IMG/VR virus record: IMGVR_UViG_3300035070_002905
Span: 64,001 to 128,000 of that record
Length of the DNA: 64,000 nt
Strand: one strand, 5' to 3'
Source of the DNA: a virus
Position 1 is the first letter of the stretch. Each line of letters starts with the position of its first letter. The position numbers and the translations under genes are program-made. This document shows positions 8,450-59,454 of the stretch, piece after piece. The notes under the pieces were generated by a model. It was not told where the DNA came from. It was given only the letters and a program-made list of their open reading frames with translations, and ran no database searches.

Positions 8450-8450
8450 C

Positions 8451-8479: not shown

Positions 8480-8482
8480 AGC

Positions 8483-8875: not shown

Positions 8876-8963
8876 TATGTCACTCCTGGGCGGCAGCCCT
8901 CTGTAAGCCATTCTAAGAGACTTTGGCCCTAAGGCATGCCATTGGTCACCTTAGGGTCTAATC

Positions 8964-35663: not shown

Positions 35664-35965
35664 TCATCCGCATCCACCTCGACGAGGAACACCTCGACGG
35701 CTCTCGTATTGTACCACTGGACTGTGCACGCAGACTGGTAGACAACCTAGAGAGCTTCGACACGTTCTGCACCGAGTTCTTTCAACCACGCTTCCTAGAG
35801 ATGGGATACGACGTCCACGTACTAAGCGAAGACGGTATCATCACTCTAAGCGAGCTAATGGATAACACCCACCCTTACATCAACAAGGAAATGCGCCGAG
35901 CACACGACACCAGGAAGATGCTCGTAGCCGGTGCGTTTACACCTAAGCCAATAGAGGACTACTAA
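35660..35965 (+). CDS. Hypothetical protein
   Basis: ATGA overlap, GAGG RBS. Confidence 0.6.
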   Translation: MIIRIHLDEEHLDGSRIVPLDCARRLVDNLESFDTFCTEFFQPRFLEMGYDVHVLSEDGIITLSELMDNTHPYINKEMRRAHDTRKMLVAGAFTPKPIEDY

Positions 35966-36405
35966 TGCGCACTAGACAAGGATTCGTCAGCAACTCATCT
36001 TCATCTTCATTCCTAATCTACGGCTTCGAGATGAAACCTGAACTCATGGCAGACTACATCGAGACTCTATCAACAGAAGAGATCGCTGCGCAGCTGCAAC
36101 GAGTTTACACAAATCGTAATAAAACGTTAGAAGTACTATGTGAGGAAGCAGCCGCTATGTCCACCGAAGAGCTAACGGATTGGTTCTCCGACGACATGTG
36201 GGATTTCGCTAACACGCTAGGTCTAGACTATGAGTCAACAGATTATGGCCCAGGCCTCATCGGTGTTAGTACGGATCCAACCTGCCTCTCACTCAACGAG
36301 TCGCTTAACGGCTGGCTCACCGCAGCAAACAAGCAGAAGGTCGACGATCTGGCAGCAGACTTCGGCGTACCAACTACACTAATTGGAGATGTATCATATG
36401 GCTAG
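35965..36405 (+). CDS. GFVSNSSSSSF-motif protein 1
   Basis: Begins MRTRQGFVSNSSSSSF. Confidence 0.8.
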   Translation: MRTRQGFVSNSSSSSFLIYGFEMKPELMADYIETLSTEEIAAQLQRVYTNRNKTLEVLCEEAAAMSTEELTDWFSDDMWDFANTLGLDYESTDYGPGLIGVSTDPTCLSLNESLNGWLTAANKQKVDDLAADFGVPTTLIGDVSYG

Positions 36406-36835
36406 AACACGCCAAGGCTTCGTAAGTAACTCAAGCAGCTCATCATTCATCATCGGCCTAGGTGTCGCTGTAGACCCTGAGGCCCTTAAAGACATCGGCT
36501 ACGGCATCAACACGCGTCAGCTCTGCGATATCTTTGAGAATCCAGGTTGGGAGATTGATGTTAAGACTCGCGGCGATCGTATCTACCTCGAGATGGAGTC
36601 TTTCACCTACAATACGGTAGAGCTAGACGTTACCGAGGTACCGCCAGATTCAGACATCGCGATCGTCTACGCGACTGGTCATGATGATTCAGACTTCTGG
36701 AACGGTGACGACTACGACTACGATAGCGATAACTGGGAGCTGGAGGGCCATCAGGAAGAAGCTCTTAAGGCACTCGAAGACGATGAGCTAATCGAATTCG
36801 GTACGTATGAAATCGGCGCAGGCCGCAACGGTTAA
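36398..36835 (+). CDS. GFVSNSSSSSF-motif protein 2
   Basis: Begins MARTRQGFVSNSSSSSF; GGAG RBS before ATG 36398. Confidence 0.8.
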   Translation: MARTRQGFVSNSSSSSFIIGLGVAVDPEALKDIGYGINTRQLCDIFENPGWEIDVKTRGDRIYLEMESFTYNTVELDVTEVPPDSDIAIVYATGHDDSDFWNGDDYDYDSDNWELEGHQEEALKALEDDELIEFGTYEIGAGRNG

Positions 36836-36844
36836 GGATAGACC

Positions 36845-37273
36845 ATGAGAACAAGACAGGGATTTGTCAGCAATAGCTCCAGCAGTAGCTTCTTACTGTA
36901 CGGTTGGTCAATGGATACGGCGGACGCTCTTCCGTATCTATGGGAGGCCGAGGATGACTTCATAGATCACCTCAAGCGCCACCATAACCTCCGCGATAAA
37001 TCGGAGGAGTACATCAAGGAACTGATGGAGAAGCCTGCAGAGGAGATCTACCAACACCTAGACTATGATACCTGGTGTCTATTCGAACCCTTTGCGGCAG
37101 AGCAGGGCGAAGACATAGTATACTTCGGATATAATCTAGGCAATCCCGAGTACATGAACGTCCAGCAACTAATGGAACCTCTGCTGACCCTTGAGATCAT
37201 GCAAGAGGTTGACGATGCGGCGGCCATTGCCGGTCAACGAGCTTCCGTGTACGGAGGCACCGTCTACAACTAG
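36845..37273 (+). CDS. GFVSNSSSSSF-motif protein 3
   Basis: Begins MRTRQGFVSNSSSSSF. Confidence 0.8.
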   Translation: MRTRQGFVSNSSSSSFLLYGWSMDTADALPYLWEAEDDFIDHLKRHHNLRDKSEEYIKELMEKPAEEIYQHLDYDTWCLFEPFAAEQGEDIVYFGYNLGNPEYMNVQQLMEPLLTLEIMQEVDDAAAIAGQRASVYGGTVYN

Positions 37274-37281
37274 GAGATAGA

Positions 37282-37695
37282 ATGAGGACACGCCAGGGCT
37301 TTGTAAGCAACTCGTCGTCCTCTTCCTTCATCATCGTGACTCACTCAGAGAATATCCATCCGGATGTCGTGGGTGATGTCACGTGGTTCGATGAGGATAG
37401 AGTGCGTGAAGAGATTAAAGAGGTCTACGGATGGGATGTCGTAGATACGTTATACAACGAGTGGTTCGATAAGAATCCTCACCGAGAAGATCCACCCTCT
37501 ATGTGGGATAAGTGGTCTACCCTATCTGAAGAAGAGCAGTGGAAGCGCTTATTTAATATACCTGAAGCCCGCGAACTGTACGACTATATGATGGACGCAC
37601 TGGACGCCGGGGACTTTGTAGCTGAAGTCGAGATGGACTATAACGACCCGAGCGAACCCATCCGACAACACCATGAAATTATTAAGGAATACTAA
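37282..37695 (+). CDS. GFVSNSSSSSF-motif protein 4
   Basis: Begins MRTRQGFVSNSSSSSF; TAATG-coupled to the radical SAM gene. Confidence 0.8.
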   Translation: MRTRQGFVSNSSSSSFIIVTHSENIHPDVVGDVTWFDEDRVREEIKEVYGWDVVDTLYNEWFDKNPHREDPPSMWDKWSTLSEEEQWKRLFNIPEARELYDYMMDALDAGDFVAEVEMDYNDPSEPIRQHHEIIKEY

Positions 37696-38882
37696 TGATT
37701 AATCCAAAGAAACACATCCTACCTGAAGCAATGCTGAAAAACTGTGAAGTATTCTACTCTGGCCACGGCGTGACCATCTACCAGGCAGGCGAGTGGCGCT
37801 TCGCCCGTTCTGAAGCGTACAACTACGACTACAACACGGTAGACGGCTTCTTCCGTCGCTGGGGTGCCACGCTAGACGAAGACCCTACCTTCGCACCACT
37901 TAACGAGATCCTCGACATCGAGGTGACCACCATTTGTAACGGTCCGGCTAACCGTCTGTGTTCCTTCTGTTACAAAAACAATAACCCTAACGGCTACAAC
38001 ATGCCACTGGCAGACTTCCAGGCGGTAATCGATAAGATGCCCTGGTTGACTCAGTGTGCACTAGGCGCCGATGCTCAGGGTACAACCAACCCCGACCTCA
38101 TCCCGATGATGCAGTACGCACGCAGTAAGGGTATCATCCCGAACCTGACGATCGCCGATGTAAGCGAGGAGGTTGCCGAGCAGCTAGCTTCAGTCGCCGG
38201 AGCTGTAGCTGTGTCTGTGTACCGACATGCAGGCTACGACGTCGCGTATGACTCTGTGAAGCGTCTAACCGACGCAGGCATGACTCAGGTCAACTTACAC
38301 TTCATGATCTCTCAGAGAACGTTAGAGGACGCCTATGAGGTATGTCGAGCCATTAAAGAAGATCCTCGTCTTGCTAATGTCAACGCCGTCGTATTTCTCA
38401 GCCTTAAACAGAAAGGCCGTGGACAGCGACACGAGTACGTTACTGAGACTGAATACAAGGAACTGGTGGATCACTGTCTGGCAGAAGGCATTCCCTTTGG
38501 CTTTGACAGCTGTTCTGCTCCTATATTTCTGGGCGCAGTTCGTGAGCATCCATCGTATGATCGTTTCCGCGAAATGGCAGAAGACTGTGAGTCAACCCTC
38601 TTCAGTTCATACATCAACGAACACGGACACTTCTTCCCTTGCTCCTTTACCGAGAAGTGGGTCGAAGGTGGATGGCTAGAAGGCATCGACGTGCTGGCTG
38701 CCGATGACTTCGTGACCGACGTATGGAATCACCAGCGTACCTGCGACTTTAAAGACGTCCTACGCGATAACACCGATGACCTTGGCTGTCGTCAGTGCCC
38801 GGCGTACGATGTGTGCGGTCGTCCGACTCGAGTGTACGATAGTGAAGTAGAAATTGTTGACTTGACTAGCTACAAGCGATAA
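37695..38882 (+). CDS. Radical SAM enzyme with SPASM/twitch-like C-terminal domain
   Basis: IEVTTICNGPANRLCSFCY (CX7CX2C); C-terminal CES...YINEHGHFFPCSF and CRQCPAYDVC. Confidence 0.85.
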   Translation: MINPKKHILPEAMLKNCEVFYSGHGVTIYQAGEWRFARSEAYNYDYNTVDGFFRRWGATLDEDPTFAPLNEILDIEVTTICNGPANRLCSFCYKNNNPNGYNMPLADFQAVIDKMPWLTQCALGADAQGTTNPDLIPMMQYARSKGIIPNLTIADVSEEVAEQLASVAGAVAVSVYRHAGYDVAYDSVKRLTDAGMTQVNLHFMISQRTLEDAYEVCRAIKEDPRLANVNAVVFLSLKQKGRGQRHEYVTETEYKELVDHCLAEGIPFGFDSCSAPIFLGAVREHPSYDRFREMAEDCESTLFSSYINEHGHFFPCSFTEKWVEGGWLEGIDVLAADDFVTDVWNHQRTCDFKDVLRDNTDDLGCRQCPAYDVCGRPTRVYDSEVEIVDLTSYKR

Positions 38883-39467: not shown

Positions 39468-39612
39468 AACCTGCTATAAATAAAGTGTAAGGAGTTATAC
39501 ACTCCTGCGGAAATTCAACATTCTAGTTATTTCCGTTATAATTAAGTTGTAAGGTAAACTACACCTTACTCGGAGCAAGTGCTCCAACAGGATTAGCAAT
39601 AGCGATCCTGCA
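39448..39612 (+). promoter_or_regulatory. Tandem duplicated promoter-like units and hairpin-rich leader of the poly-Ubl gene
   Basis: Two roughly 61 bp degenerate repeats AATTCAACA...TATAA.TAA..TGTAAGG, each followed by a hairpin, then two more hairpins. Confidence 0.55.
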
Positions 39613-39638: not shown

Positions 39639-40745
39639 ATGACTACTAAGATCATCATCCCTGGCCGTGAAGCACAAACTCTAACTGGCATGACTATGGA
39701 CGTAGAGCAAGTTAAAGCAGCTTACGCTGGTCAAATTGATCTTTCTGCGTATAACGTCGACACTCAAGTTGTTGATGGCGAAACAGTAATCACATTCTCA
39801 AACCGCACTGGTACAAAAGGAACTGACATGCAGGTAATTAACGAAGCAGGCTCTAACCCGGTATTCACTACTATCATCATTCCGGGCCGTGAAGCTCAAA
39901 CTATTCCAGGCATGGCGCTTGGCGTAGACGATGTAGTAGCAGCATTCGCCGGTCAAATCGATCTGAAGAACTACGAGTCTCAAGTGGCTCAAGAAGAAAC
40001 AGGTCCAGTAATCACATTCGCAAACCGTACAGGCACAAAAGGAAATGGCATGCAAGTAATCAACGAAGCAGGTTCTAACCCAGTATTCACAACTATCATC
40101 ATCCCAGGTCGTGAAGCACAAACGATCCCTGGTATGGCGCTAGGCGTGGACGACGTGGTTGCCGCTTTCGCTGGTCAAATCGACCTTAAGAACTACGAGT
40201 CTTCAGTTGCTACTGAAGATACTGGTCCAGTGATCACCTTCAGCAACCGTACTGGTACTAAAGGTAATGACCTGTTCGACGTGCTTTCACAGATGATGGC
40301 ATCTCCTACTACGGTAGAAGAAGAGCCGGCTGCTCCAGCTGGTCCTACTGGTACTAAGATCCTGATCCCAGGCCGTGAAGCTCAGGTAATCCCTGGTATG
40401 CTGATGGACGCTGAGCAAGTTAAAGGTGCTTACGCTGGTCAGATCGATCTATCTGCTTACAACGTTGACGTTAGCGTTGACGGTGACTTCCAGGTAGTGA
40501 CGTTCACTAACCGCACTGGTACTAAAGGTGCTGTCCTAGACGACAGCGCTGCACTTAAGCACACTAAGATCGTGATCCCTGGTCGTGAAGCTCAGGTGAT
40601 CAGCAACATGGTACTTGACGCTTCTGGCGTTAAAGCTGCTTACGCTGGTCAGATCGATCTATCTGCGTACAACGTAGAAGAAACTGAAGACGGTGACACG
40701 TTAGTAGTAACGTTCTCTAACCGTACAGGTACTAAAGGCGCTTAA
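39639..40745 (+). CDS. Polyubiquitin-like precursor: five Ubl units each ending NRTGTKG (PRTRC protein C/Prok_Ub-like)
   Basis: Five roughly 59 aa repeats IPGREAQ...AGQIDL..Y...TF.NRTGTKG; GTKG end as in PRTRC protein C; adjacent E2/JAB/E1 genes. Confidence 0.8.
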   Translation: MTTKIIIPGREAQTLTGMTMDVEQVKAAYAGQIDLSAYNVDTQVVDGETVITFSNRTGTKGTDMQVINEAGSNPVFTTIIIPGREAQTIPGMALGVDDVVAAFAGQIDLKNYESQVAQEETGPVITFANRTGTKGNGMQVINEAGSNPVFTTIIIPGREAQTIPGMALGVDDVVAAFAGQIDLKNYESSVATEDTGPVITFSNRTGTKGNDLFDVLSQMMASPTTVEEEPAAPAGPTGTKILIPGREAQVIPGMLMDAEQVKGAYAGQIDLSAYNVDVSVDGDFQVVTFTNRTGTKGAVLDDSAALKHTKIVIPGREAQVISNMVLDASGVKAAYAGQIDLSAYNVEETEDGDTLVVTFSNRTGTKGA

Positions 40746-40761
40746 GCCTTAGGTATTCTGG

Positions 40762-40791
40762 AAGGCGCCCCTCCGGCGCCTTTCTTTTTTT
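40762..40791 (+). terminator. Intrinsic terminator after the poly-Ubl gene
   Basis: AAGGCGCC-cctcc-GGCGCCTT then TCTTTTTTT. Confidence 0.85.
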
Positions 40792-40809
40792 GCTAATCCA
40801 GGAGTAACC

Positions 40810-41409
40810 ATGGACTATCCACAACCAAGTGACGTACAGAAGCAGATCAATGATGCTATCGTAGCCTGTCTAGATAATAACATCATCCGTTCTCTGGAAG
40901 ACATCCTGGAGCCGATTATCGGTGAGCAGAAAGGAGTCTTCAATGGTTCAATCAAATATCGTGGCGATATCAGCGATGCACAGATGCTGGTTAAACAGTA
41001 TGTAGGCATGATGCCTCTACAACAGATCTGCGGTCGTATCCTCCACGACGATACAATCATCCGCCTATGGAAGGGCGAGAGCTGTGTGGTAACTGAATCC
41101 CTGATGAACACTACATTCGTTCGTCGTGGTGAAGATCACCTCAAGCTTATCTTGGTCACCGTAAATGACCCGGCTACAGTAGACTACGTGAGTAATCTAG
41201 ACTGTGCGTACAACATCGAGCTAAATGAAATGCCGGAAGGCCGCCTTGGTATTGAGCTGCAAGTTCCAGTCAGCACTACCAACGCCGATCACTACTTCCA
41301 ATTCCTACAGCGTCTACCAGCTATCCTAGACGTATACTACACTCTACTGACGAGGTTCCCTACATGTCAAATCTCTTCGATCAATTTTCCGGACTTTCTG
41401 AATTCGTAG
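40810..41409 (+). CDS. Uncharacterised protein of the Ubl operon
   Basis: AGGAG RBS, 199 aa. Confidence 0.7.
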   Translation: MDYPQPSDVQKQINDAIVACLDNNIIRSLEDILEPIIGEQKGVFNGSIKYRGDISDAQMLVKQYVGMMPLQQICGRILHDDTIIRLWKGESCVVTESLMNTTFVRRGEDHLKLILVTVNDPATVDYVSNLDCAYNIELNEMPEGRLGIELQVPVSTTNADHYFQFLQRLPAILDVYYTLLTRFPTCQISSINFPDFLNS

Positions 41410-41648
41410 ATCTGCGTCACGAGTCGTATATGTCTCTGAACAATCTACTAGAAGGCCTTCGTAGCTTCAACGGCACACCTTCAGAAGCTCTTGAGATGGT
41501 TACTACAAGTAACTGGCAAGAAGGGCTTAACGAATACCAGCGACAGCAACAGCGTGTTCGTAACGGTAACCAACAAACGATCCGCGCTATGCAGCAGATC
41601 ACTTTCCGCGACTGTAAACCTGTAATGAGAGGAATCATCTATGTCTAG
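41364..41648 (+). CDS. Uncharacterised small protein of the Ubl operon
   Basis: GAGG RBS; overlaps both neighbours. Confidence 0.6.
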   Translation: MSNLFDQFSGLSEFVDLRHESYMSLNNLLEGLRSFNGTPSEALEMVTTSNWQEGLNEYQRQQQRVRNGNQQTIRAMQQITFRDCKPVMRGIIYV

Positions 41649-42333
41649 TCATATCGACGCTCGTATCCACGCAGAAGGCTACGTATCTATCAGTAACGAA
41701 GCTGGTGCAAACAAGAACATCTCGATCCCTGACTTCTTGCGTAAGATCAACCAGCTTGAGCAGGAGAATGGCAACCAGACTCAGGAAGTAGGCGAGGCGT
41801 ATACTTACCCGTCGTCTATCCACTCGGTCCAGCGTACCACTGATGGTTTCATTGTAAGCCTGTACTTCAACGAGCGTGAAGCTAACATACGTCACTCGTA
41901 CGGTGAAAGCTACCTGATCACTGTACCTAACGTAATGATCCGTCTGGAGCTACGTAAGGTTAACGGCGAAGAGCGCTACTCGATTGTAGATGCACGCTTC
42001 TACGCTACCGATAAGAACCGCATCAGCTTGCCTACGGTATTCCCTAGCGAGCCACGCAGTCAAGAACATATCTGGGCACTACCATTCCCTAATATGTATT
42101 CCGAAGGTAACATGTGCTACGGCGGTAACAGCATGCCTAGCGTAATCTACCGTGATTGGACTGTACTAGACTCTGTCTACCAGACTCTGATCATCGATGC
42201 ATCATGTAACAACGACTTGAACGTACCGTCAGTTAACGATGGTCCGTCTAATGGCGACGACTGGTTACAAGTCCTAGCCGACCACCACTCTCGCGGTGAT
42301 GGTTTCCCTTACACTCGTCTATACAACTACTAG
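41641..42333 (+). CDS. Prokaryotic E2-like conjugating enzyme (PRTRC protein B/Prok-E2_D-like)
   Basis: LPFPNMYSEGNMCYG matches the PFxNV..xG.VC.G catalytic-Cys motif. Confidence 0.75.
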   Translation: MSSHIDARIHAEGYVSISNEAGANKNISIPDFLRKINQLEQENGNQTQEVGEAYTYPSSIHSVQRTTDGFIVSLYFNEREANIRHSYGESYLITVPNVMIRLELRKVNGEERYSIVDARFYATDKNRISLPTVFPSEPRSQEHIWALPFPNMYSEGNMCYGGNSMPSVIYRDWTVLDSVYQTLIIDASCNNDLNVPSVNDGPSNGDDWLQVLADHHSRGDGFPYTRLYNY

Positions 42334-42345
42334 GAATATACTACC

Positions 42346-43479
42346 ATGGCAATGATTATTAACCCGATTACTACAGCATTCATGACAGCAGCCGAGTACG
42401 ATTCAGGTGAATTCGCTCGCTTCCCATTCAAGTACATCCTTGAAGAGAACGGCTCGATCATGTACCACACACAACTAAGTGCAGGTCGCTTCGTCTGCAT
42501 GGAAGAAGCTAAGATCAAAGGCCTGGCGGTCAACAAGACGACTAAGCCTCGTGAAGCAATCTTGCAACATCTACCTAACGGTGGTCAACGCGTTCCTGAA
42601 GAGTTCTTCTGGCAGATCCGCCAGTTCTTCCTTGACGTAATGGGTATGGGCCCGTCTACATATGAAGCTCAGGTCTTCGTACTGTGGAACGAGCATACTC
42701 AAGAGTATCGAATCATGGTCCCTAAGCAAACTGTATCAGCAGCAGCGGTACGTTATGACATTCAAGATCAGCTAGGTGAAGGCGACCACATCATTATGGA
42801 TATCCACAGCCATAACGATATGGGTGCGTTCTTCTCGGGAACCGATGACCGTGACGATGCGAAGAACTGCTGGATCTCTGGCGTGTTCGGTAAGCTCTCT
42901 ACTAACCTAGAGTACCGCTTCCGCTTCAACGATGGCACCGGCCACCACTACGAGCTGGCTAAAGGTGATATCTTCACGGTACCCGCAGCACAGTCTCAAG
43001 AGACTCCGCAGGCTTGGATCGACCAGGTTGAAATCCAGACGTACTCGAGCACTCGGTATCAAGGATACAATCGTCAGCCTTATCAAAGCGGTAACTACGG
43101 CGGTTGGCCGAATAGGAACCGCAATGCAGTAGAGACTCAGGACTACCCTGGCTGGGGCGATTCATGGGATGACGATACTACGGGACTTTTTAGCGAGGCG
43201 TCAGACCTGGACGCCTTCTTAAACGGGTCTACATTCTCGGAAGATGATGCATACAGCGAGTTCTATGATACACTGGTTGACTGCCTGTCTACGTTAGACC
43301 CTAAAGAGAGCGTTAACGTTCTTAAAGAGTTCATTAGCTGGATCGACAACCCTGCTCATGAGGCTGAAACTACTGATCGTGAATGGGACTCCTATAGCGA
43401 CGTGACGTATTACTACAGCCTATTTAAAGTAACACCTGAAATGGGTAAAGCTGTCGCACAGGACGTAATGGGAGCTTAA
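42346..43479 (+). CDS. JAB/MPN+ metallopeptidase (PRTRC protein A-like)
   Basis: YEAQVFVLW...MDIHSHNDMGAFFSGTDDRDD is the E...HxH...S..D JAMM motif. Confidence 0.9.
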   Translation: MAMIINPITTAFMTAAEYDSGEFARFPFKYILEENGSIMYHTQLSAGRFVCMEEAKIKGLAVNKTTKPREAILQHLPNGGQRVPEEFFWQIRQFFLDVMGMGPSTYEAQVFVLWNEHTQEYRIMVPKQTVSAAAVRYDIQDQLGEGDHIIMDIHSHNDMGAFFSGTDDRDDAKNCWISGVFGKLSTNLEYRFRFNDGTGHHYELAKGDIFTVPAAQSQETPQAWIDQVEIQTYSSTRYQGYNRQPYQSGNYGGWPNRNRNAVETQDYPGWGDSWDDDTTGLFSEASDLDAFLNGSTFSEDDAYSEFYDTLVDCLSTLDPKESVNVLKEFISWIDNPAHEAETTDREWDSYSDVTYYYSLFKVTPEMGKAVAQDVMGA

Positions 43480-44025
43480 ATGGAATTAGAACTGACACAG
43501 GGATGTGTCACTCTTATTGATGATGAAGATGCCGACCTTGTGTCGGCTCACAAGTGGTATCCTTTATACGTACCAAGTAGAGATAAATACATGGTGATAC
43601 GTAATAGGAAGATGGTGAACTACGAGAGGAGTGGTACTAGGTATCTGCATACCTTCCTACTGCCTGTTAAAGATGGATATTCTGTAGATCATATAAACAG
43701 GGATCCTCTAGATAACCGACGTAGTAATTTACGAGTAGCTAATAAGCAGCAGCAGCAGCTTAACACTGGACCTCGCAGGAATTCACCTATCCCGTATAAA
43801 GGAGTATCTTATAAGAAGACTAATAGCAATTACGTAGCTCAGATGTATGCACATGGTAGGAATATACATATAGGATCATTCGATTCTCCTACTGATGCAG
43901 CATTGGCGTATGATGAATACTCATTAGACTATTGGTCTAACATCCCCGACGATCCTATCTCAGGGTCGTATACACAATTCCTATATTTAAACTTTCCGGA
44001 GAAACACAATGGCACTATTGCGTAA
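43480..44025 (+). CDS. Free-standing HNH homing endonuclease with AP2 domain
   Basis: VDHINRDPLDNRRSNLR; YKGVSY...HIGSFDSPTDAALAYD. Confidence 0.9.
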   Translation: MELELTQGCVTLIDDEDADLVSAHKWYPLYVPSRDKYMVIRNRKMVNYERSGTRYLHTFLLPVKDGYSVDHINRDPLDNRRSNLRVANKQQQQLNTGPRRNSPIPYKGVSYKKTNSNYVAQMYAHGRNIHIGSFDSPTDAALAYDEYSLDYWSNIPDDPISGSYTQFLYLNFPEKHNGTIA

Positions 44026-45025
44026 ATTTGATTTACTTTTGCAGGACGTTATCGTCGTGGGTTGTGGTGGTACAGGTTCACGTACAATCCCTATGATCGT
44101 GCAGCTGTTGAAGACTGCTCCTGCAGCGATCGGTCCCGCGCTATACCTAGTGGATGGTGATGAGGTTGAGGCTAAGAACCTTGCCCGTCAGAACTTCATC
44201 GAGCCTGATATCGGTCGTAACAAGGCGGTTGTACTAGCTGAGCGCTACGGCCAGGCTATGGACTTCCCTGTACATGCACATCCGCAGTTCGTTACGGACG
44301 GCGGTAACATCGTGGGTGACATTAACCGATCGGCTAGCTCTAACGACTTCCGTCAGCTAGGCCAGATGCGTAAGATCTGGATCCTTGCAGTAGATAGCAT
44401 CAAGGCTCGTATGATGGTACTTCAACAGGCCGGTCACAACGATGTAATCATCGATGCCGGTAATGAAGATACATTCGGTCAGGTGAGCATCTACGATAAC
44501 ATCCACCTAGAGTGCCTCCAGGGCGACTCTACGCCGGAGTTAGGTCCCTTCCAAGGGGATTACGCACTGCCGTTCATTCCGTCGCCCCTGACGTCGTACA
44601 TCGCCGCTGTGATCAATCCTCCGGTTGCTACCGGTTCGTGTGCAGATCTAGATCAGTCTCTAGCGATCAACAATATGATGTCTGCGGGCATCGTTGGTAT
44701 GCTGCAGAACCTGATCTACAACAACGAGTTCTATACCTGTACTAACTCGTACGACCTGCACCGCGGTAACCAGTCGACTTCAATGAACCACCTCTGGTTC
44801 AACGAGACGATGGGCCGTCAGCGCTTCGAGAAGCAGGAGTTCGGTCGTCTTGGCGATGATCTACCTAACCGTCTGTACGATCACCTGTCTAGCCACTCTC
44901 AGAACTTCCTGATGGCGAAGAACATGGAGACTCGTCGTGGTTCAATGGTACATGAACTGCTTTGCGATATCCGCTCTAAGACTACTGCCGTAGATCCAGC
45001 CGTCCTGGCTGCTCTAAAGCTATAA
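44009..45025 (+). CDS. ThiF/E1-like Ubl-activating enzyme (PRTRC ThiF-like)
   Basis: VVGCGGTGS, DGDEVEAKNLARQNF, GRNKA, AVDSIKAR, IDAGNE, GSCADLDQSLAIN. Confidence 0.9.
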   Translation: MALLRKFDLLLQDVIVVGCGGTGSRTIPMIVQLLKTAPAAIGPALYLVDGDEVEAKNLARQNFIEPDIGRNKAVVLAERYGQAMDFPVHAHPQFVTDGGNIVGDINRSASSNDFRQLGQMRKIWILAVDSIKARMMVLQQAGHNDVIIDAGNEDTFGQVSIYDNIHLECLQGDSTPELGPFQGDYALPFIPSPLTSYIAAVINPPVATGSCADLDQSLAINNMMSAGIVGMLQNLIYNNEFYTCTNSYDLHRGNQSTSMNHLWFNETMGRQRFEKQEFGRLGDDLPNRLYDHLSSHSQNFLMAKNMETRRGSMVHELLCDIRSKTTAVDPAVLAALKL

Positions 45026-45026
45026 C

Positions 45027-45060
45027 AAAAAGGCCAGCTCCGTGAGGGGCTGGCCTTTAG
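45027..45060. terminator. Bidirectional intrinsic terminator
   Basis: AAAGGCCAGCTCC-gtga-GGGGCTGGCCTTT between convergent blocks. Confidence 0.8.
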
Positions 45061-45084
45061 TTCTTCTTATTTTTTCGCTTGTCC

Positions 45085-45910: not shown

Positions 45911-48900
45911 TTACCAGTACATGCTCACTGACACTGCATCATCCGTTAGAGTACCTGCTGCGTCTTTAACGTCAACGAATACTTCACCTAGAGTGATCGT
46001 GTAGTTACATGAACGTACTGCACCTGTTGCAGACCTAGCAGTTGCTATAACTGTAGTGGAATCGTCTAGAACCGGTCCAGCAGGAGCTATAGAGTACTGA
46101 CCTGCCTGAACCCGGGTAACAGCGACGGCGTCTGTAAAGTTACCGTGACGACCGTCGATAGCACCTGTATTACTCAGAGTCATGTGCAGTGCATTACCAG
46201 TCGAGGTGTTCTCGTTATGGTTGATGACCGTCTTACCGCCCTCTACGGCCCAGACATTGCCACGAGGTGAGGCAGTCTGCGTGAACGTCATCTCTTTCTG
46301 AGGGAATACCTGCAGAGAAGGCGTACCGCCGAACAGCTGGTTATCACCTACTTCACCCGATACCGTAGCCACTTCAGATGAACCATTCACGATCGTAAAC
46401 GTATTACCGAAGTCGTATAGACCTTTAGGTATGCGTACAGTCACCGGAGCGTTAACGTTCGGGATGTTGTAGCGAAGTCCCGTACGGATAGACTGCCTGT
46501 CCATCGTCACGTCGGTAGATGCCGCAGCAATCGTGTACGTAGTGATAGACTGAATAGACATGTCATTCACGGCGTTACCCGGTGGAGTGTAGAAGAACGT
46601 ACCGCGGTCAGTTGTACCACCGCCGGCGTAAGTTACTTCACCTACCTTCACACCATCAACGTGGATGTCACACGTGTCTTCGCCAGGAGAGTTGATCATA
46701 CTGATCAGATACATTGTATCACGTTCTAGATCGAACGTAGTGTTACCACCAGAGTTGATCATAGTAATCTGTAGCTGACCACTCGATACTGTAACGTTAT
46801 ACTCGAAACGTCCGTTAGAACCCCAAGAGGTGTTGTTCGGTTCGATATCCACCCAGATCTGACCATCGTGAGCTGCTCCGAACATAGCTCGTAAATCTGT
46901 ACGGAAGCCGTTAGCACGACAGGTATCCCAGAATGCCTGAGTATTATTAGGCGCTTGCAGTGTAATTGTACCACCGGTCTGAGTACAGCGGATCACTTCA
47001 GGGAATCCTGCGTGATTCTCTGTATTTACCCAGCGGACGTTGTTACTACCTGTCCAACCCGAGTCGGCTAGGGTATTGCCCTCTGCGAAGAAGAACTGAC
47101 CTACCGGCTCACCTGAAGCGATACGCGTAGTAGTCACGTAAGACCAGTCCGATCCATCGTACCAGATAGGTCGATTATCGGCCAGGCCATTCAACGCCAG
47201 AGAACCTGTAGGATGTCCAGTATTCTGCGGGATGATACGAGGTAGAAGTGTACCACGTAACGGTGAATCCTGCTGTACTACCACATTCTTCTCTAGGTCA
47301 GGCTCGTTAATGATAACGTGCATGTCGTAGTCGTATAGGTATACTGCTTGGTTAGTACCAGTCGAACGCTTACGTAGTGTAAGAACTGTATCGCCTGCAC
47401 CGGTAGCGAACTCATATTCGAACTCATACGTATCACCTACGTTGTTATTAGCTGCAGGGATCGTTAGCTCAGCTACCTGCGTACCCGTACTATCCACCAG
47501 TTCGAAGTCCTGCGTAGTACCACCTGAAGAAGTACTGATACCGAATCTCAAGTAGATTTTGATACGTTGGAATAGACAGTCGCGGAAAGTGATCTGCGTA
47601 CCGCCGGAGCCTGCTGTATTGTATCGAATACCAAAGTGAGTACCGCCACTGACGATAGGCATTAGTTCTCGTACCGAACCACCGGTATCAGCGCCGTTCA
47701 TAGTGATCGTCGATGCCGGGTTAAGACTAGTATCGTCGACCTCTGGACGCTTATCTGCTACTAGATCCGTCCAGTAGTTCGTATCGATAGGCCAATCGGT
47801 CTTGTTATTAGCTATCCAAGTACCATATTCACCTGCACTCATACGAGTACCGTGGCTTGCATACTTACCTATGATAACGTCGTCGGCATGGATATCTACC
47901 TGTGAATTGGTAGAGAAGTCGATGTACGCAGTGTTAGGGCCGTGCTCACCGATAGATGAACATGCTATACCTCCAGACGTTCCATCTACTATATCACGAT
48001 CAGACCACTCATCCGTACTAATAGTAGAGACTACTACTTCTGTACCTGTAGGAGTATATAGGGTAGGAGTACCGAATACTACACCTGAGGCGTAAGGCAG
48101 TGGAATGATACTAGACATCAACCCTTCGTACGTCTTGGATGGGTCTATTCTAATCTGTAATCGTATAGAGTCTACTGTATCGGCAGAATCTCGAATCATT
48201 CGGTACTGAGTACCTCCACCGATATCCCCTGTCTGTACCAGACCTAGGATACGGAAGGTAGTCGTAGACGTTCCATCGGGAACTCCACGTACCATGTTCA
48301 TGTTAATACGGTTAGTGATTACTGTATCGCCGCCCGATTGAATGAACAGGATAAAGTCAGCACCTGAAGTGTCTACCGTACCTGCAGTAAGTGCTGGCCA
48401 AGTAATCAAGTCGTACCAACCTATGCCACCTGCACCTAGATCAGTAAACTGTGCATATGCGTGTTGGCTGCCGCCTGCCGGGATGTTCTTAATGAATGAC
48501 GCGTCTAGACGATCATCTGCAGTAAGAGTCTCCAGGGCATCACGTACACCTGCACCGGATGTGTAGATCGTATCGGCTACAAACCCGTATGGATTGTACG
48601 TAGTTGTAGGGTTCAGAGTAACACCTACTGAATCATGGATGATCTCTATATGTGCATCACCGACACCACCTGTATCTAGGAATGTACCAGTTAGATAATC
48701 TTCGATGCGCAGGTAAGATGCTGCGAAGGCACTGTTACCGATTACAATATCACCAGCTACTTGTCCGAAGTTGTAGTGACTACCATTAGATAGTGTTATG
48801 TTACCTACCAGTGCTCCGATGTGCATCTCACAACGTGCAGCTGTGGAGTTACTTACGTTACCTGTAAGTGTAGCGTAAGGCAGTTCGAAGTCTAAGGGCG

Positions 48901-49651
48901 TAAATGGAGCGATGTTCTCTGTAAACGTAGACGCATCTTGACATTTAATAACGCGCTTACTTGTCGTAGGGAACGCAGAAGCTAGAGTAACCGCTTGCGC
49001 GATAGTCAGTACCGGCTGTTCCGGAGAACGACCATCGGCATTATCATCACCGCTAGCTGATACGTATACCATCTGTGCACTATCGATAAAGTCGATAGCT
49101 TCTGCACCTAGACGATCTGCGTCCGTAAGAGTCTCTAGCTTATCACGGATAGTACTAGCATCATCTTTAACTAGTAGAGAAGAAGGTTCTACCGGTCCGA
49201 ATACTACCTCTTCATCTGTCATTGGAGTCCAGACAGTTAAGTTCTCGGGGATGGTAGTTGTATCGCCTGCAGGATTCCTTGCAACTGATAGGTCTACATT
49301 CATAGACGACAGTGCAGCAGTAGCCTGAACTTGTAGATGTACAGGTGATCGTAGATCATTAGAATCTTCACGTAGAAGACGTACCATATCTACTGCAGGC
49401 ACATTAGAGTCTGTTGCGTGCGTTAGGATGCCCCATTTTACAGGTGCGTTACCTAGGTTACCTTGTATTGTGAAATCAAAGTAAGTGAACTCGCCTGCTT
49501 TAGACATGTCCAGCGTTACCCTCTCTGAGAAGCTGCCACTACCGGTGACGGTAGCGATAGTCAGCCAGTCGTTATTCGTTCGGGTCTGTCCTACTAGATT
49601 AACGGAGGTGAACGACTTATCCCCTACTGGGATTATATTTGCTATTGACAT
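45911..49651 (-). CDS. Large tail fibre/receptor-binding protein (1246 aa)
   Basis: Beta-rich; YVSASGDDNADGRSPEQPVLTIAQAV motif; RDxLExL...RLDAS linkers shared with the neighbour. Confidence 0.65.
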   Translation of the reverse strand: MSIANIIPVGDKSFTSVNLVGQTRTNNDWLTIATVTGSGSFSERVTLDMSKAGEFTYFDFTIQGNLGNAPVKWGILTHATDSNVPAVDMVRLLREDSNDLRSPVHLQVQATAALSSMNVDLSVARNPAGDTTTIPENLTVWTPMTDEEVVFGPVEPSSLLVKDDASTIRDKLETLTDADRLGAEAIDFIDSAQMVYVSASGDDNADGRSPEQPVLTIAQAVTLASAFPTTSKRVIKCQDASTFTENIAPFTPLDFELPYATLTGNVSNSTAARCEMHIGALVGNITLSNGSHYNFGQVAGDIVIGNSAFAASYLRIEDYLTGTFLDTGGVGDAHIEIIHDSVGVTLNPTTTYNPYGFVADTIYTSGAGVRDALETLTADDRLDASFIKNIPAGGSQHAYAQFTDLGAGGIGWYDLITWPALTAGTVDTSGADFILFIQSGGDTVITNRINMNMVRGVPDGTSTTTFRILGLVQTGDIGGGTQYRMIRDSADTVDSIRLQIRIDPSKTYEGLMSSIIPLPYASGVVFGTPTLYTPTGTEVVVSTISTDEWSDRDIVDGTSGGIACSSIGEHGPNTAYIDFSTNSQVDIHADDVIIGKYASHGTRMSAGEYGTWIANNKTDWPIDTNYWTDLVADKRPEVDDTSLNPASTITMNGADTGGSVRELMPIVSGGTHFGIRYNTAGSGGTQITFRDCLFQRIKIYLRFGISTSSGGTTQDFELVDSTGTQVAELTIPAANNNVGDTYEFEYEFATGAGDTVLTLRKRSTGTNQAVYLYDYDMHVIINEPDLEKNVVVQQDSPLRGTLLPRIIPQNTGHPTGSLALNGLADNRPIWYDGSDWSYVTTTRIASGEPVGQFFFAEGNTLADSGWTGSNNVRWVNTENHAGFPEVIRCTQTGGTITLQAPNNTQAFWDTCRANGFRTDLRAMFGAAHDGQIWVDIEPNNTSWGSNGRFEYNVTVSSGQLQITMINSGGNTTFDLERDTMYLISMINSPGEDTCDIHVDGVKVGEVTYAGGGTTDRGTFFYTPPGNAVNDMSIQSITTYTIAAASTDVTMDRQSIRTGLRYNIPNVNAPVTVRIPKGLYDFGNTFTIVNGSSEVATVSGEVGDNQLFGGTPSLQVFPQKEMTFTQTASPRGNVWAVEGGKTVINHNENTSTGNALHMTLSNTGAIDGRHGNFTDAVAVTRVQAGQYSIAPAGPVLDDSTTVIATARSATGAVRSCNYTITLGEVFVDVKDAAGTLTDDAVSVSMYW

Positions 49652-49689
49652 TTTGTCTCCTAAATAGGGGCCGGAGCCCCCTTTATTTA

Positions 49690-52600
49690 CTAGATAAGAT
49701 ACGGTTGGCCTATGCCGATAAGAATCGTATCATCATCGATTACCTGGAATACCTCTTGGATCAAACCTGATACAGGCTGAGCCGAAGTAAATGTCCCTGC
49801 ACTGTTTAGCCAGTAGTACTGTCCGGTAGTATAGCCGTGTCCGGTAATCGTACAGATTCCGCTAGACTGTACTCGATAGGTACCGATGTCCACTACCTCA
49901 CATACAAAGCCGGTAGCCGGAGCCATAGACGATGCATCTGCCGGAGCCCAGTTAGCACCTGCACCTCTAGCTAGCAACTGCTGCTGAGTAAACGGATGGT
50001 TAGGGTGGACTACTGTAATGATATCAGTTGAAGCACCTTCGATAGCGCTAACGTTTAGACGCTCAGTACCAGTTAATGCCTCTAGCTTATCGCGAATCTG
50101 GATTCCAGTATCGCTGCCTACCGGCACGTCTGCATGAAACTTAATGTTAGTTACTGCAACTCGAGCGAATACGATGTGTAGATCGTTTGTTACCAGTCCA
50201 CCAGCTCCTGGAGTAGTCGAAACAGTCCAGTAAGTGGTGTCCGTATTAGTATGAGCTTCTGTACCAACTACTGGATCTATTTTAGTAGCACCACCACCCA
50301 CAGGGTTGCCTTCGTACACGCGGATATCACGATCAGTACCCGATGAGGTCACTTGACCGTATCGAATCTCTAGGACCATGTTATGTGTAAGGGCACCTGC
50401 CGGGACTACCAGCTCACATACATCCGCGGAGGCAGAAGTCTCATCGGCGAATACGTTAGTGAAAAAACCTGCACCGCTACCGAAACCAAGAGGGAAGCTA
50501 CGTCCTGCATCTCTACGGAATGATGCACTTACACCAAGGCCTTCGACCATGTCATCTGCTAGAGTGTTCAGTGGAATGCCGTTAGTAACTCCGAAATCCT
50601 CGAAGATCTTAAGGGCCGCACTACCGAATCCACTACCGCGGATATCAGATGCCATAAACGGAGCGTTAGATACTACCTGTAGATCGTAAACGCCTTGACG
50701 CTGTACTACTACGTGGTAATCATCGGTTGCAACCAGCGCACTATCTAGGTTCCAAACTACAGTCTGTAGAGCACCGTATACGTTAGACTCTTGACCGTAT
50801 ACCGGATCAACTACTACACCGCCTGATGTAGGATCACCTCGGTATACCCTGAAGTGCCTATCACCGGTAGCAGATCCACGTGCGAATCGCGCCTGTAAGA
50901 CCTTGCCTCGAGCTTCCTGTGCTGGAATTATGAATTCCGCTACTGCACCGTCTCCCGTTTCATCTACCGAGCTGTTAAGCCAGAACCACCACGAGCCTGC
51001 CGTTAATGAGGCAAACGGCATGATACGAGAGTTAGTATCTCTCCATGCAGTCCCTGGGACTAGAGTACGTTCAAGTAGCTCATCGCCCTGTGCCTTAGTA
51101 AGCGTAGTACCGGTAGGAATAGCATCACGTACCGCAATCTCACGAAATACGTTCTGGAACGTACCTGTACCATCTATATTCAAGTTCTGAATAGCAGATG
51201 AATCCAGGCGATCTGTACCTGTTAATGCCTCTAGTTCATCCCGAATCTGTGTACCAGTAGACTGGCCAAGAGATGTATGGAACTCTACGTCAAGTAGAAT
51301 CTGACGTCCTAGGTATACGTAGATGTCAGCTGAGTTAGCTGGGACCTGGTAAGTTACCGCATGAGCAGTAGCACCGCTGTTCGTACCGACTACCGGTAGA
51401 ATCTCTGTACCTGAAGCTGTAGCATCACCGTTGAATACACGTAGTTCACGAGTCAGACCTGACACGATATCACTTATGAAGAACGTGATGTATGAACCGC
51501 CAGTTAGATCTTTACCAGTGAAGATTACCTCGCTGTACGCGTGACCTGCATCTGTAGGATCTTGTCCACCCGATGGTGCATATACACCCCACGAGTCAGC
51601 ATCGTCGTAGTATGCTAGTGCAGTACGAGCTGTAGTAACACCTACACCAAATGTGCGTAGGATCTCTGTAGACTGTGCTACCGATAGAGCCTCATCATCT
51701 GCAATAGAGTCACGGTCTGCGATCGTCTTAGCATGCTTAGCGTACTTACTGAATACATTCTGTACCGCCCAAGATTCTAGGCGATTAGCCTCTGCCACCG
51801 ATTCGATATCATCGATAAGCTCTAGTGGAGTAAACCCTAGACGATTGTTGATCGCCTGAAGAGATAGCTCTTCCCAGTCTGCCGCGTTGAATGCACCTGC
51901 AGTAACCGTAGCGATAGCCACGTAGTCACGTCCAAGGTGAGATACATAGGCGCCGATCGCATAGTTGTTCGCGATGTTAAACACGTTGTAAGCTGCCGCA
52001 CCACGTAGGGATACGATGTCACCTTCAACTGCTTCGATTCGGTTTTCGTTAGTGATTGCACTGACGATCTGCCACTCCGCAACATCCCATGCACCTGCTG
52101 CCACGCCTGTACGTGCTTTGTACAATCTGCTTAGGTAGATTACGTAGGTACCTGCAGTATACGTTGCAGTAGAATCAAAGTCTGCCGGACGAGCTGCCCC
52201 GCGTAACGCCTCGATGTCTACTTCAGCTGTATCGATACGACCTTCGTTATCTACAATCGAGATGACCTGCCATTCCGATGCGTCGAAGTTACCTGGAAGT
52301 ACTGCTGCAATAGCATGGTATAGACGGTTGCCGAATACACAGCTATCGTCGATTGCGTAAGTAGCCGTAGAGTCAAAGTCTGCCGCTACTGCCTGGCCGC
52401 GTAGCTGTTCGTGCGCATCGCTGATACCTACTGAAGTCTCTAGGACTAGCGCTGCGTTACTTAGAGTAGACGCTTCGTACCAGTTAGCTGCATCCCACGG
52501 TCCTGCCGTAAGATCTTCACGAGCGATGAACGTACGGTTATCTGCTGTACGATATACCGAGTCACCTGCAGAGTATGCCTGAGTAGCGCTGAATTCTGTC

Positions 52601-54357: not shown

Positions 54358-54408
54358 AGTAATCTCCTATCTATGGTACGCATGCGCGCTAATTAATGTG
54401 CTTACGTA

Positions 54409-54415
54409 TATTTTA
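54409..54415 (-). promoter_or_regulatory. Candidate late promoter TAAAATA
   Basis: Immediately after the upstream terminator. Confidence 0.6.
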
Positions 54416-54418
54416 GAC

Positions 54419-54443
54419 AAAAAGAAAGGGCCCGAAGGCCCTT
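54419..54443 (-). terminator. Intrinsic terminator with UUCG loop
   Basis: AAGGGCC-ttcg-GGCCCTT then TCTTTTT. Confidence 0.85.
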
Positions 54444-54445
54444 CA

Positions 54446-58495: not shown

Positions 58496-58960
58496 TTACA
58501 CCTCTAAATCTTGACGTCTCTCACGAGAAGCATTAGCATCGGTATCTTCCACGTTGAACTTGAACTTAGATACGCCGTTCTGATCGTACATAGTAAGCAG
58601 GTTCGTACGCTTATCCCAATACCAACTACCCATTGTAGCAGTCTTGATATCGTTAAGTTCATCAATAATCTGCGCATAGATTGGATCTATGATAGCAGTC
58701 GGAGAATAATCAGTCATAATCTCCAGGACGTCATCACCGTCAGGTACGCCGTTAGGGTACTGTGTAAGATCTAGGGTTACTCGATGATAATTATTTGGAT
58801 CGTTCGGGTCTGTATTACTAACTGTATAGTCGGTAATGCGAACCAGTTTGATCCCGTTAAGATAGATCGTTTCTGCGTCTTTAGAAAACGGGTTGACATC
58901 GAAGGCGTTCTTACCTACTGCATCATCTCCCGTAAAGACTTCTGAATATCCGTAAGCCAT
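58496..58960 (-). CDS. Putative virion structural protein
   Basis: IYLNGIKLVRITDYTV motif; coupled in the late operon. Confidence 0.55.
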   Translation of the reverse strand: MAYGYSEVFTGDDAVGKNAFDVNPFSKDAETIYLNGIKLVRITDYTVSNTDPNDPNNYHRVTLDLTQYPNGVPDGDDVLEIMTDYSPTAIIDPIYAQIIDELNDIKTATMGSWYWDKRTNLLTMYDQNGVSKFKFNVEDTDANASRERRQDLEV

Positions 58961-59445: not shown

Positions 59446-59454
59446 CGTATTCTC

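Follow-up and report, generated by a model that had tools for sequence, protein, structure and literature searches.

A probable ubiquitin-like conjugation pathway encoded by large virulent-type phages

The phage DNA analysed here, a 64,000-nucleotide stretch that we refer to as the window, encodes what is probably a working ubiquitin-like (Ubl) conjugation pathway, carried as a vertically inherited core module of large virulent-type phages; its chemistry is untested. The cassette occupies positions 39639–45025, with all genes on the plus strand, and its host genome is that of a 172-kb virulent-type phage. The original prediction had proposed a full activate–conjugate–cleave set with recognisable catalytic residues and no ParB, and profile searches, fold predictions and a comparison of ~20 lineages bear this out. 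Indeed, every open reading frame and motif claimed for the block was found where it had been placed. The gene list was incomplete in one respect, having overlooked an HNH-AP2 homing endonuclease gene (43480–44025). The absence of ParB extends beyond the window: a PF02195 search of the whole 172-kb genome gave no match, and control genomes did match. No tyrosine integrase was found.

The synteny search proposed for phage genomes recovers the cassette order in 27 loci (~20 non-redundant). The order is fixed in all of them: Ubl, X, Y, E2, JAB, E1, where X and Y are the positions held here by two proteins of unknown family. Because the same gene order recurs in all these loci and the catalytic residues are invariant, chance can be excluded. 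Cultured Vibrio phages (D69, D148 and D181) and the cultured Salmonella phage Arash are among the ~20 distinct phage lineages, as are IMG/VR contigs that reach 193 kb. Although these lineages share only 25–45% identity, E1, E2 and JAB have the same catalytic residues throughout. The cassette sits at a constant genome position and always adjoins a conserved block of structural genes. Moreover, divergence of the enzymes tracks that of the adjacent structural gene (Spearman 0.68–0.79, drawn from related, non-independent loci). In this clade of large virulent-type phages the cassette is a conserved core module, most probably passed on by vertical inheritance.

The precursor of the presumed tag (368 aa, 39639–40745) contains five beta-grasp cores (39642–39821, 39864–40043, 40086–40265, 40350–40529 and 40560–40739) and a single Ala cap codon before the stop (40740–40742). 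Repeat dissection shows that every core starts with PGREAQ and that all five units close with NRTGTKG (residues 61, 135, 209, 297 and 367); TRF reports a period-222 repeat with a score of 673. The units are separated by spacers of 13–27 aa and are diverged paralogues of two subtypes rather than identical copies. A beta-grasp fold had been predicted for the repeat unit, and the AF2 model of one unit is indeed beta-beta-alpha-beta-beta (pLDDT 89.6). Its VIA-align neighbours are mostly MoaD, ThiS, Urm1, SUMO and ISG15 (Z 3–5), with CysO and TtuB also among the best. At the sequence level the signal is faint. Of the four Pfam profiles suggested for the cassette (Prok_Ub, Prok-E2_D, Prok-JAB and ThiF) all find a match, the first two below cut-off: the whole precursor scores 24.5 bits against Prok_Ub (2.3e-5; cut-off 25), and lone units scarcely match at all (1 of 18, at E 0.004).

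Comparison with relatives bears on how the precursor might be processed. Relatives encode one to five Ubl units, and all units in all lineages end [TS]G[TNA]KG, so the C-terminus is Lys-Gly, not Gly-Gly, and its Gly is invariant in every unit of every locus. Most single-unit genes stop right after this Gly; one adds AKR. In multi-unit genes the cap is absent or consists of A, K, DA, EA, ALA or INYSK. Arbitrary residues beyond the last Gly are the pattern of polyubiquitin genes and argue for cleavage after Gly. The comparative pattern supports such a cut.

The protein predicted to transfer the tag is a 230-aa E2-like conjugating enzyme (41641–42333) whose reading frame contains PFPNMYSEGNMCYG. 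It has a small N-terminal domain (residues 1–47) and a UBC-like core (52–227). Its match to Prok-E2_D (PF14460) is sub-threshold (5.8e-4, 20.1 bits, cut-off 25); across the family, 17 of 19 members match, with a best E of 1.4e-9. The motif P-[FL]-[PT]-N-x7-C is invariant and places the Cys eight residues past the Asn, the HPN-to-Cys spacing of canonical E2s. Both catalytic candidates, N151 and C159, are kept without exception in 21 of 21 lineages. Downstream of C159 the invariant positions of the family alignment are G161, N190, D192, L193 and W208, with no invariant His. AF2 models the protein with a pLDDT of 81. The Foldseek check that had been proposed returned nothing significant, but most of the top VIA-align rows for residues 52–227 are UBC E2s (Z 4–5.2, 117–134 residues aligned, rmsd ~4 Å). 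The match of the predicted core to the UBC fold is modest.

The JAB/JAMM metallopeptidase (377 aa, 42346–43479; Prok-JAB 3e-10, PRTRC_A 8e-21) consists of an N-terminal domain, a JAMM core (residues 107–195) and a long acidic C-terminal tail. Its JAMM motif, the zinc site of this peptidase family, is complete (E107, H154-S-H156, S164, D167), and E...HxH-x7-S-x2-D is kept in all complete homologues. The ~100 residues ahead of the core include R48, present in all homologues but one, and no clearly matching invariant Trp. The ThiF-type E1 adenylating enzyme (338 aa, 44009–45025; ThiF 1.7e-13, PRTRC_ThiF 1.2e-20) carries GCGGTGS, NLARQNF and SCADLDQ. Across 18 lineages GxGGTGxR, D-x-D, KNLxRQ, GRNKA, K72, D129 and C211 (within S-C-A-D-L-D-Q) are invariant. 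The hallmarks of E1/ThiF/MoeB adenylating enzymes, a Rossmann GxGxxG, ATP-binding motifs with Arg/Lys and an Asp for Mg binding, are all present. The overlooked gene between the two, on the plus strand (HNH_3 1.9e-9, AP2 7e-7, phrog_99 2e-30), is present at the JAB–E1 junction of L011 and absent from that of D69, L007, L008 and L009. It is a selfish insert and no working part of the cassette.

Two conserved proteins lie between the Ubl and E2 genes. Unk199 (199 aa, 40810–41409, plus strand) has an invariant C-terminal LLTR-x-x-x-C motif in which T181, R182 and C186 are invariant; a search space of 1.84 billion proteins contains 14 cluster representatives of it. It could be assigned to no Pfam, NCBIfam, PHROG or PADLOC family, and its family has no NCBIfam match even with E allowed up to 1. 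Unk94 (94 aa, 41364–41648, plus strand) occupies the slot between Unk199 and E2 in every close locus and can be detected in the L003 and L016 lineages; it belongs to no known family and has no NCBIfam or PADLOC match. Its gene overlaps that of Unk199 by 46 nt and that of E2 by 8 nt, and these overlaps suggest translational coupling.

The Ubl gene appears to be controlled separately from the enzyme genes. The region's best sigma-70-like promoter candidate (39515–39542, plus strand) lies upstream of it, with 10 of 12 consensus positions matched. The candidate rests on consensus alone, and such sites are rarer in the region than in shuffles. At the boundary with the enzyme genes stands an intrinsic-terminator-like hairpin (40760–40792, plus strand; 10-bp stem with 7 GC pairs, then TTTTTTT). 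A GC-rich hairpin and T-run follow the Ubl gene at the same place in nine of nine loci examined, and the stems vary in sequence by lineage with pairing maintained. A strong hairpin terminator (45029–45066; 13-bp stem, 8 GC pairs) ends the cassette, at convergent minus-strand genes.

We propose that these parts act in sequence. The Ubl gene, with its own promoter and a conserved, probably leaky terminator, would supply the tag in excess over the enzymes, an excess that is inferred. JAB, itself an inferred choice of protease, would cut the five-unit precursor after each ...T-G-T-K-G and trim the Ala cap. The products would be five free Ubl molecules, belonging to two subtypes and all ending in Gly. 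The E1 would adenylate this Gly and, by inference, probably form a thioester on Cys211. From there the Ubl would pass to Cys159 of the E2-like protein, in which Asn151 lies at the canonical E2 distance—a step deduced from motif and fold—and then onto lysines of target proteins. JAB may additionally reverse the tagging. No E3, target or recognition domain could be identified in the cassette. Speculatively, a role as E3-like or specificity factor would best suit the co-translated Unk199, with its invariant Cys, and Unk94; the targets might be host proteins or phage proteins produced in large amounts.

Several points count against a conjugation pathway. No biochemical step has been shown for the phage family or for its bacterial relatives, and the modest E2 fold match, the null Foldseek result, the weak single-unit Prok_Ub match and the KG end all weigh on the same side. 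We are evenly divided on a bolder version, in which covalent Ubl tagging of proteins by a complete virus-encoded pathway is an obligatory, vertically inherited step of the lytic cycle across the clade, the two unknown proteins are a new E3 or specificity factor aimed at virion or host proteins, and the polyubiquitin-style precursor is independent of eukaryotes. If true, this would be the first complete E1–E2–peptidase–Ubl pathway encoded by prokaryotic viruses.

Similar loci already sit unrecognised in GenBank (Arash, D69, D148 and D181): we know of no publication in which they are recognised as a Ubl system, and found none that tests the function of the phage cassette. There is nevertheless evidence of expression. 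LC–MS/MS of Arash virions detected the homologues of E1, JAB, E2 and Unk199, with 226–430 spectra each (PMC10585845). The same preparation contained primase, ligase and ribonucleotide reductase (PMC10585845), so we read the detection as expression, not packaging. The genomic surroundings are also shared. Three context genes (154, 161 and 283 aa; minus strand, 58496–60306) have homologues that lie convergent right after E1 in other loci, and tblastn places such homologues downstream of E1 in almost all loci. In Arash, the counterparts of the 283-aa and 154-aa proteins carry a structural annotation. In the window, three giant genes (45911–58492) displace the trio from E1.

Could the cassette serve counter-defence or competition instead? 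Bacterial E1–E2–JAB pathways function in phage defence, and JAB might strip host tags from phage proteins, the Ubl might swamp or mis-tag Bil or CBASS Cap2/Cap3 immunity, or competitor virions might be tagged. A high Ubl dosage (five units, own promoter, terminator) would fit a competitor or decoy, and the Rossmann motif of the E1 also occurs in Cap2-type models. That resemblance to the PADLOC E1–E2 models is weak and limited to residues 12–90 of the E1. PADLOC models match neither Ubl, E2 nor JAB, nor the two unknown proteins, and the link to Bil and CBASS drawn in the original prediction survives as an analogy only. Furthermore, a device that only deconjugates would need JAB but neither E1, E2 nor Ubl. 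Genes for counter-defence tend to be sporadic accessories, whereas this cassette keeps a fixed position and co-diverges with structural genes clade-wide. We consider this role unlikely.

A still less probable reading is that no protein is tagged, and that a ThiS/MoaD-like Ubl is adenylated and thiocarboxylated at its C-terminal Gly by the ThiF enzyme as a sulfur carrier, for instance to modify a nucleotide or cofactor, with JAB acting as in CysO/Mec+ or QbsE/QbsD. The structures closest to the Ubl unit do include MoaD, ThiS, CysO and TtuB, the N-terminal part of the E1 is matched by ThiF and MoeB models, and a radical SAM gene lies upstream in the window. However, that gene is common only to L011, a 98%-identical relative, and not to the clade, and the cassette has no rhodanese, cysteine desulfurase or sulfur-acceptor enzyme. 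Every locus encodes an E2-like protein with invariant Asn and Cys, and to our knowledge sulfur-carrier systems have no such protein. Nor do we know of a multi-unit precursor for a sulfur carrier, and the units here end in KG, not GG. The idea that Ubl and peptidase merely help adjacent tail or baseplate proteins to assemble, as has been proposed for lambda gpI and gpK, with the Ubl freed but not attached and E1 and E2 only regulatory, can appeal to the constant structural neighbours, to lambda-type Ubl–JAB pairs on record in tail assembly (PMC1779556) and to the co-purification with Arash virions, but it is no more probable: the structural neighbours are convergent and hence not co-transcribed, synteny kept within a phage clade proves no functional link by itself, and the conserved adenylation and Cys residues of E1 and E2 would be needless.

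For the conjugation pathway that we favour, the closest known kind is operon type 6d, or the PRTRC cassette; neither it nor the phage form has been experimentally tested. A fit to PRTRC (ParB-Related, ThiF-Related Cassette; NCBIfam TIGR03734-03742) had been predicted, and PRTRC_A and PRTRC_ThiF are indeed the best-scoring curated families for JAB (74.5 bits, cut-off 101.8) and E1 (73.9, cut-off 144.75). PRTRC_B and PRTRC_C match the phage E2 and Ubl only faintly (13.9 bits, cut-off 131.45; 15.2, cut-off 45.95), and the two unknown proteins match no NCBIfam model, PRTRC D, E and F included. Since every PRTRC model stays below its cut-off and ParB is missing, the phage cassette is a divergent PRTRC relative and not a member. 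True PRTRC-type JAB and ThiF pairs do occur in temperate phages (for example Ralstonia phage Dina and Burkholderia phage BgVeeders33), and these loci show no match to the present E2 or Ubl.

Type 6d combines Prok_Ub, Prok-E2_D, Prok-JAB and ThiF and was described from bacteria and the mobile elements that they carry (Iyer, Burroughs and Aravind 2006, Genome Biol 7:R60, PMC1779556). In the 6d E2 the HPN His is missing and a His after the Cys is conserved without exception; the 6d JAB has an N-terminal alpha+beta domain with conserved Arg and Trp, and the extra protein is alpha-helical with conserved polar residues (PMC1779556). Common to both are a small Ubl ending in a conserved Gly, an E2-like protein with a conserved Cys, a JAB and an E1; both also have an additional uncharacterised protein and a domain ahead of the JAB core, whose equivalence in the two is only putative. 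By contrast, the phage E2 still has the Asn of the canonical HPN motif and no invariant His after its Cys, the phage Ubl comes in one to five units with caps, there are two unknown partners rather than one, and the cassette is part of the core of virulent phages.

Bil (BilABCD) and type II CBASS Cap2/Cap3 follow the same logic, in which an E1, an E2 and a JAB peptidase all work at a C-terminal Gly. They are host defence systems, whereas the present cassette is phage-owned and its E1 and E2 are separate, not fused. Phage lambda and T1 tail assembly proteins I (Ubl) and K (JAB plus NlpC/P60) form a phage Ubl–JAB pair (PMC1779556), likewise adjoining tail genes. Lambda has neither E1 nor E2, and its Ubl forms a fusion with a further domain; the present cassette contains the full machinery for activation and transfer. 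Finally, the precursor resembles eukaryotic polyubiquitin genes (UBI4, UBB, UBC type) in having several units per reading frame, each ending at the activation Gly, and in capping the last unit with variable extra residues that need removal; in L012 and L013 the units are nearly head to tail. It differs in the spacers, two-subtype paralogues and KG end of the window's units, and in its presumed processing enzyme, a JAMM peptidase encoded by the same operon.

The cassette at window positions 39639-45025 is real and intact. It lies on the plus strand of a single virus record (172,110 bp, ~95% complete by CheckV), of which the window covers bases 64001-128000, and an ORF check found every gene of the original prediction as described and on that strand; one had been left out, a 181-aa HNH-AP2 homing endonuclease (phrog_99, 2e-30) between the JAB and E1 genes. 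The first gene (39639-40745) encodes a ubiquitin-like (Ubl) precursor of 368 aa with five units of ~60 residues, and contains a DNA repeat detected by TRF. On repeat dissection each unit starts near I-I-P-G-R-E-A-Q and closes with N-R-T-G-T-K-G; consecutive units lie 13-27 residues apart, and a single Ala stands between the last Gly and the stop. Two proteins of no known family follow, unk199 (199 aa) and unk94 (94 aa), and then a 230-aa E2-like protein containing P-F-P-N-M-Y-S-E-G-N-M-C, a 377-aa JAB peptidase with a complete JAMM motif, the endonuclease and, last, a 338-aa E1 with a ThiF match. The unk199 and unk94 genes overlap by 46 nt, those of unk94 and E2 by 8 nt.

Relatives of the cassette were found by protein-level searches only; megablast against phage records gave no match. 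Protein searches of 50,697 phage records recovered every part in Vibrio phages D69, D148 and D181 and in Salmonella phage Arash. E1 identity is 60% for the three Vibrio phages (187 kb) and 33% for Arash (181 kb); in all four the genes are annotated merely as hypothetical or structural. A search of 5.8 billion proteins yielded 16 relatives of the E2 family, none of them named. From fetched contigs and an IMG/VR scan with the E2 alignment we assembled 27 loci (~20 after removal of redundancy) from viral contigs, the longest of 193 kb. Gene order in phage genomes had been proposed as a check, and the cassette passes it: with HMMs built from our own alignments, Ubl, E2, JAB and E1 have the same order and orientation in every sufficiently long locus. 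The phage-type E2 motif occurs in none of 185,579 bacterial and archaeal genomes, a weak negative because it rests on a single peptide pattern.

Three convergent genes, homologues of those at window 58496-60306 (minus strand; 154, 161 and 283 aa), always lie 3' of the cassette. Moreover, the cassette enzymes diverge in step with the adjoining neighbour gene (Spearman 0.68-0.79 over 17 loci; the loci are related, so these statistics are only indicative). Because of this co-divergence and the fixed position, the comparison points to a cassette that would belong to the vertically inherited core genome rather than to a roaming accessory element. The JAB-E1 junction attracts insertions: the window and L011, its 98%-identical relative, have an HNH endonuclease there, L005 a 64-aa ORF, and the L003 group a stretch of small ORFs (0.5-0.9 kb). 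No insert is present in D69, L007, L008 or L009.

Several observations concern individual loci and neighbouring genes. Positions 7962-8975 of our D69 locus (OZ195729) are annotated as a truncated 251-aa E1 CDS and a 29-aa reverse ORF that is spurious; an E1 frame of full length runs across the whole interval (HMM E 3e-168). In another locus (L027, 6723-9165) the JAB gene is in two ORFs ~1.1 kb apart; it may be a broken copy, or an intron or homing element may have been inserted. In the window, three giant genes (45911-58492, minus strand; 1246, 1555 and 1348 aa) separate E1 from the conserved 154/161/283-aa block, and only the middle one has faint tail-fibre or virion PHROG matches. L011 lacks all three and has just a 116-aa ORF that matches the 1348-aa protein over 88 residues. 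The difference marks a recent, large insertion or deletion within the host-recognition region. Upstream, four adjoining MRTRQGFVSNSSSSSF paralogues (35965-38882, plus strand) have M-R-T-R-Q-G-F-V-S-N-S-S-S-S-S-F as their common N-terminus; 3' of them lies a radical SAM/SPASM-like gene (phrog_7293). We excluded these five genes from the cassette because only the near-identical L011 has them.

The JAB and E1 assignments are clear. In Pfam, JAB matches Prok-JAB (3e-10) and E1 matches ThiF (1.7e-13). For E2, the window's protein alone gives weak support (Prok-E2_D, 5.8e-4), but the family makes the assignment solid, with 17 of 19 homologues matching Prok-E2_D (best 1.4e-9). PHROGs holds no family for Ubl, E2 or JAB, and for E1 only an unnamed one with a weak match (E 0.003); in the PDB, the E1 sequence matched MccB alone, over the Rossmann motif. 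Foldseek against the PDB gave nothing significant for either the E2 model (AF2, pLDDT 81) or the Ubl model, so we used VIA-align searches instead. Among the top rows of an exhaustive search that span E2 residues 52-227, most were eukaryotic UBC E2s (Z 4-5.2, ~120-134 residues aligned).

A full activate-conjugate-cleave set with its catalytic residues had been claimed, and conservation upholds this. Across lineages with only 25-45% identity the invariant residues are Asn151 and Cys159 in E2; E107, H154, H156, S164 and D167 in JAB; and GxGGTGxR, KNLxRQ, K72, D129 and Cys211 in E1. The Asn151-Cys159 spacing equals the HPN-to-Cys spacing of canonical E2s.

The repeat units were expected to be beta-grasp domains, and the structure predicted for one window unit (pLDDT 89.6) is indeed beta-beta-alpha-beta-beta with a loose C-terminal tail. 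Its neighbours in VIA-align are MoaD, ThiS, Urm1, TtuB, CysO, SUMO, ISG15, FAT10 and UBX domains (Z 3-5); such low scores are expected for 60 residues, and the modelled fold class is consistent despite them. By sequence, single units barely match Prok_Ub.

Ubl genes among the loci carry 1, 2, 3, 4 or 5 units, all of which end [TS]-G-[TNA]-K-G. In single-unit genes the stop mostly comes right after the final Gly, as in Arash, and one such gene has AKR there; in multi-unit genes the last Gly is followed by nothing, A, K, DA, EA, ALA or INYSK. In eukaryotic polyubiquitin genes, too, the residues after an invariant Gly are arbitrary and disposable. Because the phage genes follow the same pattern, we have strong indirect evidence, by analogy, that the mature modifier would end at the C-terminal Gly and that the precursor would be cut there. 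These capped precursors of one to five units are a natural series for the evolution of polyubiquitin-type gene organization.

For precursors of three units, the alignment A2 tree places first, second and third units in clades of their own, common to four phages, which tentatively suggests that they are retained paralogues and not homogenized copies. Of the five window units, 2 and 3 group with the first-unit type, and 1, 4 and 5 lie near the last-unit type, a tentative placement from a tree on 60 residues. One four-unit precursor (L012, 3262-4353) has three nearly identical units almost head to tail with 2-residue spacers, then a spacer of ~170 aa that may conceal a degenerate domain, and a divergent last unit ending K-R-Q-G-A-K-G plus ALA.

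A GC-rich hairpin and T-run lie 3' of the Ubl gene in all nine loci examined, and the stems vary in sequence and retain pairing. Given this conserved element, transcription of the Ubl gene may be partly uncoupled from that of the enzyme genes, and more tag than enzyme would result.

Published LC-MS/MS on purified Arash virions (PMC10585845) bears on expression. Gene numbers in that paper equal the GenBank number plus one (PMC10585845 supplement). Detected were E1 (gp247, 430 spectra), JAB (gp248, 369), E2 (gp249, 226) and the 320-aa unk199 homologue (gp251, 379) (PMC10585845), and because of these counts we conclude that all four are made in quantity. Detection does not prove packaging: primase, ligase and ribonucleotide reductase are among the 116 proteins identified, and the authors concede that carry-over is possible (PMC10585845). 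Arash Ubl could not have been found. Its true 66-aa ORF (107-307 of our Arash locus; OQ632216, complement 180513-180713; ending R-T-G-T-K-G-stop) is missing from the proteomics database because GenBank gp251c (102-320) was called in the wrong frame.

unk199 has 14 cluster representatives among 1.84 billion proteins and an invariant Cys186 within L-L-T-R-x-x-x-C. A structure-atlas search gave no usable lead for it (atlas model pLDDT 0.44), and a 3,619-aa phmmer match (P0023) was rejected as spurious, lacking the family motif and matching none of the cassette-family HMMs. A predicted complex of E2, unk94 and unk199 scored the same after E2 was swapped for an unrelated protein and is uninformative on binding either way.

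We consider it likely that the cassette is a working protein-conjugation pathway, although only sequence-level prerequisites are established and every chemical step is inferred. JAB would mature the precursor, E1 would adenylate the terminal Gly, and Ubl would pass from E1 Cys211 to E2 Cys159 and then to target lysines. The coupled unk199 (with its Cys186) and unk94 could provide specificity or act like an E3. High tag dosage suggests abundant targets.

Three rival readings are weaker. A device for counter-defence or competition is unlikely, as it sits badly with a core module that co-diverges and with the requirement for E1, E2 and Ubl. A role as sulfur carrier is more doubtful still; the conserved E2 contradicts it, sulfur-transfer partners are absent, and the upstream radical SAM gene is common only to L011. 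The faintest prospect is an assembly role without conjugation, like that of lambda gpI/gpK, for which the conserved adenylation and Cys residues would not be needed. A conjugation pathway kept as core genome across lineages at 25-45% protein identity implies that phage biology has an important, as yet unknown use for protein tagging. Salmonella phage Arash and Vibrio phages D69, D148 and D181 are in culture, which makes the cassette directly testable.

How does the cassette compare with known systems? Its parts list is that of operon type 6d, described as a prediction by Iyer, Burroughs and Aravind in 2006 (PMC1779556), but the downstream His of type 6d E2s (PMC1779556) is absent from the phage E2s. 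The proposed fit to PRTRC (ParB-Related, ThiF-Related Cassette) stands only in part. PRTRC_A (8e-21) and PRTRC_ThiF (1.2e-20) are the best curated families for JAB and E1, both under cut-off; the cassette proteins miss all four curated PRTRC cut-offs, NCBIfam gave no match to PRTRC proteins D, E or F, and the reported lack of ParB extends to the whole genome by profile search. PRTRC-type JAB/ThiF pairs occur in Ralstonia phage Dina (among temperate phages) and in Bacillus jumbo phages, without matches to the window's E2 or Ubl. Nor is the cassette Bil or CBASS. The literature searched yielded no description of a phage-encoded Ubl conjugation cassette, no functional study of PRTRC and no test of the type 6d/PRTRC family, for which, predicted in 2006 (PMC1779556), the cassette would offer the first experimental handle. 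The cassette thus represents a new variant, specific to phages, of a system that has been predicted but is experimentally untested. To our knowledge, the bacterial Ubl conjugation pathways studied so far (CBASS Cap2/Cap3, Bil and Bub) are all host-owned, and those of known role act against phages; here, unlike in those, the complete pathway belongs to the virus.
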